Numbered from the stretch's first letter, positions 13 to 44,692 are shown. The stretch: 64,000 nucleotides of DNA from Eledone cirrhosa (GCA_964016885.1 OZ024745.1:19716001-19780000); one strand, 5' to 3'. A program made the numbers and translations. The notes: generated by a model from the sequence alone, not told the origin.

Positions 13-288
13 ACGATATTAACAAATGGAAACTATATTTATAAAACCATATTTATTTCATTATACATATTTCAAGGACACCAAGTTGGAAGCTCCCGGA
101 TACTATCCGGGAGCTTCCAACAGTAATGGTTGCATTCTTTTAAGGGTATGTCAATATTTATTTATAAAACTGCTCTATATTATATTTTATTTGAAGAAAG
201 CAAACCATAATTTAATTTGGTGTCCTTGAAATATGTATAATGAAATAAATATGGTTTTATAAATATAGTTTCCATTTGTTAATATCGT
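13..288. repeat. 72-bp inverted repeat enclosing an 18-bp-stem hairpin, ending at (TA)n
   Basis: 13-84 is the reverse complement of 217-288; 85-121 gttggaagctcccggata-c-tatccgggagcttccaac is a perfect hairpin. Confidence 0.9.
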
Positions 289-315
289 GTGTATATATAT
301 ATATATATATATATA

Positions 316-531
316 TCATCATCATCATCATCATCATCATCAACGTTTAACGTCCGTGTTCCACGCTTGCATGGGTTTGGACGGGGGTTTTCCCACTTGA
401 GGCAAGAGTGATTATCTTGCTCGCATAGGACTGTCTGGCGGGTTTTCTACAGCTGGATGCCCTTCCTAACACCAACCACATTTACAGTGTGGGGCTGGGA
501 GGTTTTTACCGTGTTGCCTACACGGCCACAT
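316..531 (-). mobile_element. SINE-like non-autonomous element with RTE-type 3' tail and (GAT)n end
   Basis: Near-identical copy on + at 27034-27243; contains the ggtgttaggaagggcatccagc motif and the aacccatgcaagcgtggaa..ggacgttaaacg..(gat)n tail. Confidence 0.75.
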
Positions 532-714
532 TACAGCGTGGACTGTGTGTTTTTTTGTCGTGACACCTACACGATCTCAATTGTTTCGGCCTGGATGTTG
601 TGGCACCAACATAACTTTACATTGAAAGGGGCGGTGTGGATGGGGTGGGGTGGGTGGGACGGGGGTGTGTTTTGTTAGAGATGCCTACTGACTGTAGTAG
701 GTTTTACTTTGTAT

Positions 715-2657
715 TTAGGTAAGGCGGGTCTTCTCTATTACTGAGTACCGCCAAAGGTCTTGGTCCAGTGACATTGTCTTGGAGAGGTGTAAGCGTGTGA
801 GGTCGGAATTTATCAGGTCGTCCCAGGTTTTTCTGGGTCTGCCTACTCCGTGGCTACCGTCTATCTTTATTGCCCTGCACTTTGTTATACAGCTGTCGTC
901 TTTCATGCGCATCTCGTGACCATACCAACGTAGCCTTCTCTTGAGTAAACAACATCTGATCCCTCTTATTTCTAATTTTTTTCTTAGTTTGTTTATGCTT
1001 AGCCGTTCACGTATATTACTATTACACATCCAGCAGAGCATGCAAGCTTTGTTCCTCTCTAGTCTGCGTATATCCTCTGCACACAATGCCCAGGTCTCAC
1101 TGCCATGCAGCATTGCTGTTCGTATGCAGGCATCATATAACCTGCCTTTCATTTTTAGGGAGAACCCTTTAGCGGCTAATAGTGGTATAAGGTCTCTGAA
1201 CTTTTTCCATCCAGTTCTGACTCTAGCTACTGTACTTTCAGAGCACCCTCCCCCACTGCTGATTTTGTCACCCAGGTAACGGAAGCTGTCCACTATTTCT
1301 ATAGAACCCTCTGCGCAATTGAAAGAGCTAGTATTTTGTGGGCACTTGCTGCTACTTATTGCACCAGAGCACCGGCCACATGTAAAATCTATGTTCTTAG
1401 TTAGCTTACCTGTGATCCCACTACATCTTTTATGCACCCATACTTTGCATTTGGGACATAAAATGGAGTTTCTACCTACGCCTTTCCTACACACTGAACA
1501 TGGCCATTTCCCGGAAGGGACCGCCACCTTATTTTCTTTCCTACAAACTAGAACTTTAGTCTTAGCCAGGTTAATTTTAAGGCCTTTTGATTCTAGGCCG
1601 TGCTTCCATGTTTGGAATTTCTTCTCTAGCTCGGTCATTGATTCAGCTATGAGCGTTAGATCATCTGCATATAGGAGTTCCCATGGGTAGCCGGTCTTGA
1701 ACTCCTCTGTTATAGCCTGAAGGGCAATAATAAATAGTAGGGGGCTAAGGACGGAGCCCTGATGAACACCAACTTTTACGCTAAACTCTTCACTATATTC
1801 GTTGTTAATTCTAACCTTGCTGACTGTTTCTTTATACATGGCTTGTATAGCTCTCACAAGCCATTCGTCAACACCTAGTTTTCTAAGAGCCCACCAGATA
1901 ATGGAACGGGGGACTCTGTCGAAGGCTTTCTCCAAGTCAACAAAAGCTAAGTATAGGGGTTTACTTTTAGCTAGGTACTTCTCCTGTAGTTGTCGTACAA
2001 TGAAAAGAGCGTCTGTGGTACTTTTGCCTGACACAAACCCGAACTGCATTTCATCTAGATCAATTCTCTCTCTGATTAGTTGCGCTATTACTTTTTCCGT
2101 GACCTTCATGACCTGGTCGATTAATTTAATGCCTCTATAGTTACACCTATCTAGGGCATCTCCTTTACCCTTGTAACAGTTAACGATGATGCTGCTATGC
2201 CAGTCCTTTGGAACAACCCCATTCTGTATGACTTGGTTTACTATCCGGGTGACCATGGTGTGTCCCACCGTTCCAGAGGCTTTCAGCATCTCAGCAACTA
2301 TTTCCGAAGGCCCAGCCGCCTTACCCATCTTCATATCTTTGATTGCCTTACTTATTATACTACCTTCGACTAACACTGCTGGTCCCTCTATTGGGTCGAT
2401 GTAGGGGAGACTGTCTTTCTCCCATTTGTTCTCCTCATTTAGAAGCCTTTCGTAGTGACACTTCCAAGCTACCTTCTTATCAGCGTCAGTGATGGCAAGT
2501 ACGCCATCATCATTAAGTACACACTTCTCCCCGACAATATCACGGTTTTCCTTGACACATTGCCTAGCAATCCTGAACACCTCACGTTTTTGGTCCTCAC
2601 GTTGTAGAACATGCTTGAACTTTCTTTCCTCTGCTTCCCTTCTTGCGAAGTACACTT
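715..2657 (-). mobile_element. 5'-truncated RTE-clade LINE: reverse transcriptase with inserted PHD-type finger
   Basis: Open frame with [40 protein letters not shown] and a C4-H-C3 insert. The true 5' edge abuts (TA)n at about 2658; the N-terminus in the ORF track is microsatellite read-through. Confidence 0.95.
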
Positions 2658-2776
2658 GTATATATATATATATATATATATATATATATATATATATATA
2701 TATATATATATATATATGTATGTATGTATATATGTATGTATGTGTGTATGTATAAATGTATGTATATATATATATA

Positions 2777-41851: not shown

Positions 41852-42516
41852 AAACCCTTTTTGTACAGCCGACCATGTTATTCTTCACTCTTTCACTGTT
41901 ATTACTCCAAGTATAACCTGCATGGGAATTCTCGCGAACTCGCTACCTAACTAAGTAAACCTCTTGTTGAGTAAAACAGCGCCGTACGTTAAAACTATCC
42001 ATAGTACAGAGTACTCACAACCTCTAACTGGATTACCTAAAACGATATCCATATATTTATATATATATTTATATATATATATGTCTGTGTGTGTTGTTAT
42101 ATGAGGGGCCCACCAAACCTAAACTGCGACCCGAGCTGCCCAATATTTAAATCTAGTTATAAGAACAACTGAAGTAAGACTCAAGGCACTCTGTACAATA
42201 GACTCATATATATACATTGAAGATTCACCAGCCTGTTAAAACAACAAATCCTTTATTACCATGGATTATGAACATTGTTCCTGTCAAGTCAATGTATTTT
42301 GTAAACAATCTGGTTAGCTTTATATATGAACATGGTTATCTATCTTAGTAGACAGCCAAAATAATAAATGACTTGTTTAACTACTTCTCGTTCTGTTACA
42401 ATTCATGCCTAATGTAATCTGAAATTTTTAGTGATCATACACACACTCAAACATACATAGGTTAGCGGCAAGATACACATAAAGAGACACATGTTACATA
42501 CATACATACATGTATA

Positions 42517-42870
42517 TCATCATCATCATCATCATCATCATTTTACGTCCGCTTTTCCCTGCTTGCAAGGGTGGGACGGGAACTGATTCTGGCTTGATTT
42601 CTACAGCTGGATGCCCTTCCTAACACCAACCTCATTTACAGTGAGTGGTGGGTGCTTTTTTGCCGTGGCACCTCCACGACCACTTTTGCAGTGGAATGAT
42701 AGGGACTCCAGTCCCTATCATCTCATTTCTACAGCTGAGTAAACTGGAGCAATGTGAAATAAAGTGTCTTGCTCAAGGAAACAACACATCACATCAGTCT
42801 GAGAATTGAACTCACAACCTTTCGATTGCAAGGCCAATGTTCTAACCACTAAGCCATGTGCCTCCATATA
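42517..42870 (-). mobile_element. tRNA-head CORE-type SINE with RTE-derived body and tail
   Basis: A and B boxes, ccttgagcaagacactt CORE-like motif, ggtgttaggaagggcatccagc; tail identical to the RTE tail at 13358-13397. Confidence 0.75.
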
Positions 42871-42888
42871 TATGGGTGTATTTTGTAT

Positions 42889-44249
42889 TTAGGTAAGGCG
42901 GGTCTTCTCTATTACTGAGTACCGCCAAAGGTCTCGGTCCAGTGACATTGTCTTGGAGAGGTGTAAGTGTGTGAGGTCGGAATTTATCAGGTCGTCCCAG
43001 GTTTTTCTGGGTCTGCCTACTCCGTGGCTACCGTCTATCTTTATTGCCCTGCACTTTGCTATACAGCTGTCGTCTTTCATGCGCATCACGTGACCATACC
43101 AACGTAGCCTTCTCTCGAGTAAACAACATCTGATCCCTCTTATTTCTAATTTTTTCCTTAGTTCGTTTATGCTTTGCCATTCGCGTATATTACTATTACA
43201 CATCCAGCGGAGCATGCAAGCTTCGTTCCTCTCTAGTCTGTGTATATCCTCTGCACACAATGCCCAGGTCTCACTGCCATGCAACATTGCTGTTCGTATG
43301 CAGGCATCATACAACCTGCCTTTCATATTTAGGGAGAACCCTTTAGCGGCTAATAGTGGTATAAGCACTCTGAACTTTTTCCATCCAGTTCTGACTCTAG
43401 CTACTGTACTTTCAGAGCACCCTCCCCCACTGCTGATTTTGTCACCCAGGTAACGGAAGCTGTCCACTATTTCTATAGAACCCTCTGCGCAATTGAAAGA
43501 GCTAGTATTTTGTGGGCACTTGCTGCTACTTATTGCACCAGAGCACCGGCCACATGTAAAATCTGTGTTCTTAGTTAGCTTACCTGTGATCCCACTACAT
43601 CTTTTATGCACCCATACTTTGCATTTGGGACATAAAATGGAGTTTCTACCTACGCCTTTCCTACACACTGAGCATGGCCATTTCCCGGAAGGGACCGGCG
43701 CCTTATTTTCTTTCCTACAAACTAGAACTTTAGTCTTAGCCAGGTTAATTTTAAGGCCTTTTGATTCTAGGCCGTGCTTTCATGTTTGGAATTTCTTCTC
43801 TAGCTCGGCCATTGATTCAGCTATGAGCGTTAGATCATCTGCGTATAGGAGTTCCCATGGGCAGCCGGTCTTTAACTCCTCTGTTATAGCCTGAAGGGCA
43901 ATAATAAATAGTAAGGGGCTAAGAACAGAGCCCTGATGGACACCAACTTTTACGCTAAACTCTTCACTATATTCGTTGTTAATTCTAACCTTGCTCACTG
44001 TTTCTTTATACATGGCTTGTATAGCTCTCACAAGCCATTCGTCAACACCTAGTTTTCTAAGAGCCCACCAGATAATGGAACGGGGGACTCTGTCGAAGGC
44101 TTTCTCCAAGTCGACAAAGGCTAAGTATAGGGGTTTACTTTTAGCTAGGTACTTCTCCTGTAGTTTTCGTACAATGAAAAGAGCGTCTGTGGTACTTTTG
44201 CCTGACACAAACCCGAACTGCATTTCATCTAGATCGATTCTCTCTCTGA
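42889..44249 (-). mobile_element. 5'-truncated RTE LINE, same family as 715-2657
   Basis: Near-identical sequence; premature stop at 43780; 5' edge at (TA)n. Confidence 0.95.
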
Positions 44250-44284
44250 TATATATATATATATATATATATATATATTTATAT

Positions 44285-44692
44285 ATCACGATAAATTAAT
44301 GGAGCCATAGACTCTCGTTATTCCCTGTCAATAATGTACTCAAAGGAGAAGGAATCCTGAGCTCTTTAAAATACAATATGTTGAAAAGGTAACACACTAG
44401 AGAGAGATAGTGCACCATCAATAAAACAGGGAAAAACCACCAGTGTATGGAATCTATAACCTATTAAAGGAAGGGTAGACACACGGTAATTAAAAATATA
44501 AATTAAAGTGTATATACAAACCTCTATAACTATATAACACACGCGTACAAATCCAAAGAGATCTGTTTCGCCAATAATTTGTTGACAGAAATAAATAGCC
44601 CATGGTTCATCAGCGTGTGTAAGGCTATACATTTTTCCCTGTTTTATTGATGGTGCACTATTTCTCTCTAATGTGCTACCTTTTCAACATAT
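44285..44692 (-). mobile_element. HHR-bearing island between (TA)n tracts with a 61-bp inverted duplication
   Basis: 44376-44436 is the reverse complement of 44632-44692 (3 mismatches). Confidence 0.7.
44539..44620 (-). ncRNA. Type-I hammerhead ribozyme
   Basis: Minus strand reads acacacg-CTGATGA-a-cca...tgg-c-GAAAC-agatct(cttt)ggattt-GTA-cgcgtgt; one stem I mismatch. Confidence 0.72.

Follow-up and report, generated by a model that had tools for sequence, protein, structure and literature searches.

The stretch of the Eledone cirrhosa genome analysed here (19716001-19780000, 64,000 nt, taken from a 3.0-Gb assembly; hereafter the window) contains eight composites in which two arms of one repeat family stand head to head, with their outer ends facing outward onto (TA)n tracts. 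Based on the anatomy of these units and on the published biochemistry of Penelope-like elements (PLEs), we consider it highly probable that the fold-backs are insertions of non-coding elements that were copied by the PLE reverse transcriptase (RT)/GIY-YIG endonuclease. The repeat families concerned are referred to as A to H (Table 1). An initial annotation of the window had described recurrent inverted duplications anchored in (TA)n on the 5' side of a hammerhead ribozyme strand, and had attributed most of the palindromes of the window to a single insertion or repair mechanism.

Association of fold-backs with (TA)n tracts

The microsatellite content of the window is very high, and (TA)n tracts of at least 10 nt alone number 102 and sum to 2686 nt. 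Inverted repeats were listed by self-comparison after masking of simple repeats, with arms of at least 28 nt lying no more than 2.5 kb apart, and the large array of family C was added. With the same tract length as the cutoff, 7 of the 17 non-microsatellite inverted repeats adjoin (TA)n, with 9 outer ends in total, while random placement of the same 17 intervals in 5000 trials gave a mean of 0.72 ends on (TA)n and never more than 4. Hairpin-shaped repeats bounded by (TA)n are therefore real and far commoner than chance, as the initial annotation had proposed, and the inverted repeats that it listed (13-288, 18589-18705, 22065-22480, 27351-27691, 28121-28579, 44376-44692 and the array) were all present at or near those positions. 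The remaining 10 of the 17 inverted repeats have no contact with (TA)n, and thus the claim that one mechanism produces most of the palindromes in the window goes too far.

Such an association could also arise without an RNA step, if cruciforms formed by (TA)n broke and the adjoining DNA was duplicated in inverted orientation during repair. Long (TA)n tracts are fragile and prone to form hairpins, and the contacts counted above would agree with this explanation. However, fold-back repair would copy any flank, whereas every arm observed here is part of a dispersed family, and its end falls on one family-specific nucleotide even when the loci are on different chromosomes. Furthermore, the (TA)n tracts flank the arms and do not occupy the centre of symmetry, except at 10864-10925. 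This interval had been listed as a similar fold-back but is of another type, in which two element 3' ends face each other tail to tail across a (TA)7 loop. An origin of the two-armed units by fold-back repair is thus very improbable.

Shared anatomy of the two-armed units

[quoted passage not shown] Since the genome searches scored the top 40 candidates each, the sample of loci is biased toward young copies. Copies elsewhere in the genome have the same geometry as those in the window, with other inner junctions. The outer ends are 3' ends in the hammerhead sense wherever a hammerhead exists, and the inner ends are 5' truncations whose positions differ among loci and which are joined with an overlap of 0-13 nt or through 3-70 nt of filler. 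Tandem units with a GC content of 0.33-0.43 were found in families A (593 nt), B (539 nt), C (468 nt), and H (603 nt), in the window as well as at other loci. The arms often exceed one tandem unit, and the inverted arm in these four families ranges from 46 nt up to several units, depending on the locus.

The outer sites of A, B, C, and H come in fixed pairs with a spacing of 62-156 nt. One end of an insert carries the distal site and the other end the proximal site in 12 of 12 composites of family A, 5 of 7 of family B, 5 of 7 of family C (with one more probable), and the only composite of family H, and among the inserts examined there was no case in these four families combined in which the same site was found at both ends. 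Families F and G have a single site.

The inverted repeat of the family A copy in the window (28124-28186 and 28514-28576) is 63 nt long with 96.8% identity. Its main arm stops at the distal site, 27965, and its inverted arm, which is a copy of 28186-28121, stops at the proximal site, with an overlap of about 7 nt at the junction. Comparison with family A copies at other loci reveals that 28121 does not mark the edge of the element, and the true unit of 593 nt is a tandem unit composed of 28121..28520, 37 nt absent from the window copy, and 27965..28120. All composites of this family (the window and 11 other loci) consist of two opposed arms flanked on both sides by (TA)n, with outer ends at 27965 and 28121 (28127 in L003), and have 11 distinct inner junctions, that of L010 being the same as that of L011. 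Four junctions (L002, L003, L004, and the window, 28512-28523 / 28177-28191) cluster 9-18 nt downstream of the half-hammerhead GUC, with differences at the nucleotide level, and this cluster may represent a hot spot for cDNA ends. A rule tying the inner junctions to the hammerhead cut site was considered and rejected, as the other junctions of family A scatter and those of family B do not cluster. When contigs of four sequencing runs were compared with 27300-28700, family A was found at high depth in one other organism label, and no contig of these runs bridged an empty site in this interval. A 621-nt contig of another sequencing run spans one A unit.

In family B, the inverted repeat of the window copy (44380-44436 and 44632-44688) is 57 nt long with 94.7% identity. 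The main arm stops at the distal site, 44287, and the inverted arm, a copy of 44436-44376, stops at the proximal site. Within the family, the outer sites are 44287 and 44367-44376, and the 3' end at 44287 adjoins (TA)n in 12 of 13 loci. The two of the seven two-armed copies that do not pair these sites pair 44287 with another end.

Family C constitutes the large array, and the suggestion that the array repeats the geometry of the small fold-backs at kilobase scale was confirmed, with two inverted arrays of the 468-nt unit and (TA)n at the outer end. The left arm contains 7.75 units with the RNA sense on the minus strand and has its outer end at unit position 1, and the right arm contains 8.4 units with the RNA sense on the plus strand and has its outer end at unit position 407, 62 nt further on. 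At the central junction, unit position 348 is joined to about position 123. All 15 of the complete 351-nt unit cores in the array are identical, and the units differ only by +2 or +4 nt in an internal TA run, with registers unlike between the arms. A very recent single event and slippage while copying are both compatible with this pattern. The pairing of unit sites 1 and 407 was found in the window, L041, L043, L045, and L047. L044 probably has the same pairing, and L049 is an exception that ends near position 360. No RNA runs were listed for family C.

The two-armed unit of family H is the eighth case in the window and was absent from the list in the initial annotation. The outer end of its tandem arm lies against the right-hand (TA)n of the C array, and its inverted arm ends 122 nt inside the unit.

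Table 1. Two-armed units, related copies and PLE fragments in the window (positions counted from the first nucleotide of the window)
Feature	Position	Strand	Structure
Family A composite (593-nt unit)	27939..28600	-	(AT)13 27939-27964, main arm 27965-28520, inverted arm 28514-28579, (TA)n 28577-28600
Family B composite (539-nt unit)	44249..44720	-	(AT)19 44249-44286, main arm 44287-44634, inverted arm 44632-44692, (TA)n 44689-44720
Family C (468-nt unit)	44721..52325		two inverted arrays 44721-48350 and 48351-52281, (TA)n 52279-52325
Family H (603-nt tandem unit)	52297..54078	-	tandem arm 52297-53714, 62-nt filler, inverted arm 53777-54078, then TATATATA
Family D (195 nt)	18589..18783	+	short inverted arm 18589-18644 (proximal site), long arm 18650-18783 (distal site), (TA)n on both sides
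Family E composite	1..288	-	main arm from window -91 (beside (TA)n) to 213, inverted arm 214-288 (copy of 13-87), (TA)12 at 292-316
Family F	22065..22480	+	inverted arm 22065-22141 (77 nt), main arm 22142-22480, same site at both ends
Family G	27351..27691		two 169-nt arms head to head, 3-nt spacer, (AT)n 27682-27723
D-like copy	10864..11037	-	copy 10902-11037, 3' end on (TA)7 10888-10901, 24-nt inverted copy of the 3' end 10864-10887
Distant relative of D	41279..41384	-	mini-hairpin with 11-nt arms 41358-41384 against (TA)n 41384-41514; other end on (AG)n/(TA)n 41157-41278
PLE pLTR fragment	18356..18506	-	L110 positions 5906-6058, 94%; beside (AT)n 18208-18363
PLE pLTR 3' copy, 5'-truncated	27717..27931	-	last 219 nt of the L110-family pLTR, 89%; 3' end on (AT)n 27682-27723

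Families with a fixed inverted repeat

Families D and E have a lopsided layout, with tails of 78 and 103 nt, respectively, and a junction that is fixed in most copies. The D palindrome (18589-18705) is 117 nt long with 94% identity, the distal site lies 78 nt beyond the proximal one, and 13 of 13 other loci repeat this structure, with flanking (TA)n at either end. A comparison of the D arms does not decide between arms rebuilt at each insertion and arms inherited from a composite, with the consensus arms being perfectly complementary and the differences between arms being private or at CpG. The inverted repeat of family E (13-87 and 214-288) is 75 nt long with 98.7% identity, and 11 of 13 other loci hold a copy spanning about -91..300, mostly with (TA)n on both sides. 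In family F, the repeat (22065-22126 and 22419-22480) has 96.8% identity and its ends lie within long (AT)n (21961-22064 and 22481-22788), and the inverted arm at 9 other mapped loci is about 167-170 nt in 6, about 197 nt (with lower identity) in 2, and 294 nt in 1. The G palindrome (27352-27690) is 339 nt long with 97% identity and ends at the same site on both sides, and single G arms are found elsewhere at 98-99% identity, including a direct pair 549 nt apart. The arms at 41358-41384, which had also been listed as a fold-back, are too short for a firm call.

For these families in particular, ordinary miniature inverted-repeat transposable elements (MITEs) have to be weighed, that is, non-autonomous DNA transposons of the Tc1/mariner type with terminal inverted repeats (TIRs) and a TA target-site duplication (TSD), which would be drawn into (TA)n by their preference for TA. 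Families D, E, F, and G keep one inverted repeat in most copies, and the ends of F and G are symmetric and flush with TA tracts, so that F and G alone could not exclude MITEs. As for TA-targeting DNA transposons, the only trace noticed in the window is a remnant of a mariner-like transposase open reading frame (ORF) at 62614-62982 on the minus strand. On the other hand, the arm length and the inner junctions vary in A, B, C, and H, where the bodies are tandem multimers, and the arms of F vary as well (77, about 167-197, and 294 nt). Moreover, the repeat of A-E and H is not terminal, since one end of the element is found 62-156 nt beyond it, and no family has a fixed TIR on both sides. The initial annotation had set its proposal against MITEs with fixed TIRs and TSDs. 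A fixed repeat is indeed found in D, E, F, and G, whereas in D and E, which are asymmetric by 78 and 103 nt, one end extends past the repeat by that distance and no 2-bp TSD is readable inside the (TA)n flanks. Therefore, D and E are not ordinary MITEs, and for the two-armed units as a whole a MITE origin appears unlikely.

LINE- and SINE-type elements of the window

An alternative that does involve RNA is twin priming driven by long interspersed elements (LINEs), in which a non-LTR endonuclease/RT would copy these RNAs while the second DNA end acts as a primer at an internal position, in the way that 5' inversions of L1 arise. Inverted retro-copies are well known to result from twin priming, and several LINE-type ORFs are present in the window, including endonuclease and RT. 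In addition, a head-to-head pair of tRNA-like short interspersed elements (SINEs) at 28616-29082, with 181-nt arms of 89% identity, outward 3' ends, and (AAT)n-type tails, has the same geometry with another tail and is possibly LINE-driven. As generally understood, L1 twin priming shares with the window units the priming of a second DNA end on the same RNA, the inverted segment, and a junction with microhomology or filler in the middle of the unit. However, the window units have no poly(A) or LINE-type tail, they are multimeric, and both of their arms have fixed ends, while the inverted segment in twin priming would be expected to come from further 5' on the RNA and to have no fixed end. The 3' ends of LINEs and SINEs in the window bear (GAT)n or (AAT)n and not (TA)n, and the LINE-/SINE-type elements that end in (GAT)n make local LINEs not obvious drivers. 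Tandem multimer arms and a two-site 'tail' are PLE traits (PMC11167929 and, in the parts bearing on insertion structure, PMC8557442), and we see little likelihood that twin priming by LINEs produced the units.

A SINE-like repeat (292-342, 26660-26775, and L050 upstream of the window) and the LINE at 715-2994 on the minus strand have the common 3' end ..ACGGACGT.AAACG.T(GAT)n. To judge from this sequence, they resemble a LINE and its SINE partner, with (GAT)n as the tail, and are separate from the (TA)n-associated families. Kilobase-scale arrays of short units at 3814-4893 and 23441-24534, which are (ACTCTACA)n and (TATGG)n-like, have no relation to the fold-backs.

Hammerhead cores

The hammerhead is inessential to the insertion signature. 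No hammerhead core was found in families E, F, G, and H, and families A and D have only half of one; therefore, the hammerhead is not part of the signature. In family A, for which a complete ribozyme had been assumed at 28121-28579, the minus strand contains only the GAAAC-UACGUA-GUC half, and the 593-nt unit has no CUGANGA box on either strand. The plus-sense half-hammerhead reported at 18589-18705 in family D was found and, like that of A, consists of the GAAAC/helix III half.

In contrast to these halves, the minus-strand hammerhead reported at 44376-44692 corresponds in family B to a putative type I core with CUGAUGA at 44613-44607, GAAAC at 44569-44565, and a predicted cut between GUA and C at 44546/44545. 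All 15 B copies retain an intact CUGAUGA box, and 14 of the 15 retain CGAAAC. Helices I and III can each be drawn with 7 bp, and a C-G pair of helix I is replaced by U-A in one copy, which is a compensatory change. Family C has a minimal core with the palindrome ACUAGU at the helix III positions, a type of helix III that we take to be typical of PLE-associated hammerheads acting as dimers. Further cores, missed by the initial annotation, occur in short elements at 26523-26547 on the plus strand and 58156-58179 on the minus strand, and in both the 3' side of the sense strand faces a TA-rich tract. Where a core exists, any inverted arm does lie on the 5' side of the ribozyme strand, with the 3' end facing TA (B, C, 26523, and 58179). 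The core at 58179 on the minus strand is beside a small fold-back at about 58245-58332, next to (TA)39.

A relaxed regular expression for the core matched 4 independent families in the window, compared with 0.15 expected from shuffles, and a strict expression with a closed helix II matched a single, chance-looking site (30519-30551). The Rfam search of the whole window at E<=10 was swamped by microRNA-like matches to (TA)n.

Penelope-like elements in the Eledone cirrhosa genome

The genome holds thousands of PLE copies with RT and GIY-YIG domains. The search of the genome with the PF01541 profile gave 10,596 first-look candidates, and all of the 150 that were scored exceeded the curated Pfam cut-off. 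ORFs of 636-1096 amino acids carry RVT_1, with a C-terminal GIY-YIG domain in 2 of 3 tested, and the CX4CXXC linker as well as C-x2-C within the GIY-YIG core are readable in the PLE translations. In the autonomous copy L110, the direct pseudo-long terminal repeats (pLTRs) are about 1.1 kb long, and each end of the copy adjoins (TA)n. L111, a 5'-truncated copy of the same PLE family, has a 289-nt (TA)n at its 5' junction, which argues for (TA)n as the target and against a tail that the enzyme would add at the 3' end. Two 3' fragments of this PLE family also occur in the window next to (TA)n (Table 1). As families A-H contain no RT/GIY-YIG ORF, they are candidates only, on sequence grounds, for non-autonomous riders on these PLEs.

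Proposed origin of the two-armed units

The anatomy described above could be produced in the following manner. The PLE endonuclease would cut both strands of a (TA)n tract, and each released DNA 3'-OH would prime reverse transcription, starting at one of two fixed internal sites on an element RNA that is multimeric or circular. The PLE 'tail' would be the interval that separates these start sites, 62-156 nt here. Both cDNAs would head for the 5' end of the RNA, stop early, and be joined by end-joining or template switching. Transcription of an entire two-armed unit, followed by another round of copying, would account for the fixed composites of D, E, F, and G. With respect to the single insertion mechanism suggested initially, with second priming at a (TA)n break, the fixed outer ends and the varying inner junctions are in its favor, while its link with the hammerhead is lost and its reach is limited to 7 of the 17 inverted repeats. 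The insertion mechanism is not new, because it matches the published PLE signature (PMC11167929 and the corresponding sections of PMC8557442).

It is also conceivable, and we suggest it only tentatively, that both arms result from one concerted event, in which a dimeric PLE enzyme works on a single multimeric or circular RNA, with its protomers at the proximal and distal sites, each primed by one end of the double-strand cut in (TA)n.

Several observations weigh against the involvement of PLEs. The fixed inverted repeat in most copies of D, E, F, and G is what a DNA transposon would also show. Most outer sites share 2-6 nt of TA microhomology with the target, and 3 of 7 single-arm copies of family B have no (TA)n near the 5' end. 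When units A-G were compared by BLAST with 15 PLE-bearing loci representing three PLE families, only low-complexity matches or matches to unrelated insertions were obtained, and no common ends were found. The tails of 62-156 nt exceed the 30-40 bp published for PLEs. As for the ribozymes, no Rfam family reached the gathering score in the whole window, targeted Rfam searches gave no hammerhead for A or B at E<=10, and the best result for C was a weak HH9 match at 44953-45015 on the minus strand (16.5 bits, E 0.62).

The microhomology alone does not pick the start sites, because units C and H are rich in TATA/ATAT words (37 and 26, respectively) and yet their arms end at two sites, apart from the one family C exception near position 360. 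In a crude test, the longest word common to the regions downstream of the two start sites did not exceed the background within the unit in any of A, B, C, and H.

Comparison with known systems

Partial tandems, an inverted 5'-truncated copy at the 5' end, and a tail that is often at one end only have been described for endonuclease-bearing PLEs, and a preference for (TA)n for the Naiad, Neptune, and Hydra clades, in the sections of Craig et al. (2021, PMC8557442) that deal with insertion structure. The window units share with these PLE insertion units, as characterized there, the partial tandems, the inverted 5'-truncated copy, the one-end tail, the (TA)n target without a readable TSD, and the presence of hammerhead motifs in some members; in addition, autonomous members of the class are abundant in the Eledone cirrhosa genome. 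Differences are that A-H encode nothing and have no similarity to the three sampled PLE families, and that several of the window families have no hammerhead or half of one.

The structure of PLE insertion units is reportedly also treated by Arkhipova (2006).

In vitro, the protein of Poseidon of Anolis carolinensis (PAc) acts on both DNA strands, cutting and extending them (Frangieh et al. 2024, PMC11167929). In that system, reverse transcription begins at two internal RNA sites whose spacing equals the genomic tail, and the hammerhead is unneeded (PMC11167929). Extension of both DNA ends, two fixed start sites, an AT-rich target, and a dispensable hammerhead are likewise what the window units suggest. 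Most window sites have TA microhomology, in contrast to the start sites of PAc, which were not homologous to the cut DNA (PMC11167929). PAc used either site on either strand without distinction (PMC11167929), while in A, B, C, and H the arms of a single insert were never observed to share a site.

Metazoan non-LTR retrozymes are described, in the parts of Cervera and de la Pena (2020, PMC7229834) and of Li et al. (2026) used here, as short, low-GC tandem repeats of about 170-400 nt with a type I hammerhead in each unit, expressed as circular RNA. Minimal type I hammerhead variants in PLEs are also described in the former (PMC7229834, in part). An origin of retrozymes from PLEs has been argued in the latter from the phylogenetic distribution and pLTR similarity, as far as the consulted part of the preprint goes (10.64898/2026.07.22.740005). 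Non-coding tandem repeats, the low GC content, a predicted type I hammerhead core in each unit of B and C, and the proposed dependence on PLEs are common to retrozymes, as so described, and to the window families. The units here are longer (468-603 nt compared with 170-400 nt in those descriptions), and A and H are tandem without a complete hammerhead. The words 'inverted' and 'microsatellite' are absent from the main text of PMC7229834, and the two-armed geometry in (TA)n thus provides a further connection with PLEs, one that lies outside the definition of retrozymes given in these portions of the literature.

Implications

On the PLE reading, many of the apparent palindromes in the window and one 7.6-kb inverted satellite array would be retro-insertions of a known class instead of DNA transposons or scars of repair, a distinction that is relevant to repeat annotation and to assembly checks. 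Two details may aid in understanding the PLE insertion cycle, namely, the two-site pairing, which is unbroken in A, B, C, and H in that no insert examined has the same site at both ends, and the multi-unit arms with identical cores. If both arms were indeed made in one concerted event, this would explain the one-sided PLE 'tail', the formation of inverted pLTRs, and the origin in a single step of arrays with many identical ribozyme units, and it would be structural proof that retrozyme-like satellites ride on PLE machinery. The two-armed footprint that ribozyme-bearing tandem repeats leave in (TA)n backs the recent proposal that animal retrozymes depend on PLEs.

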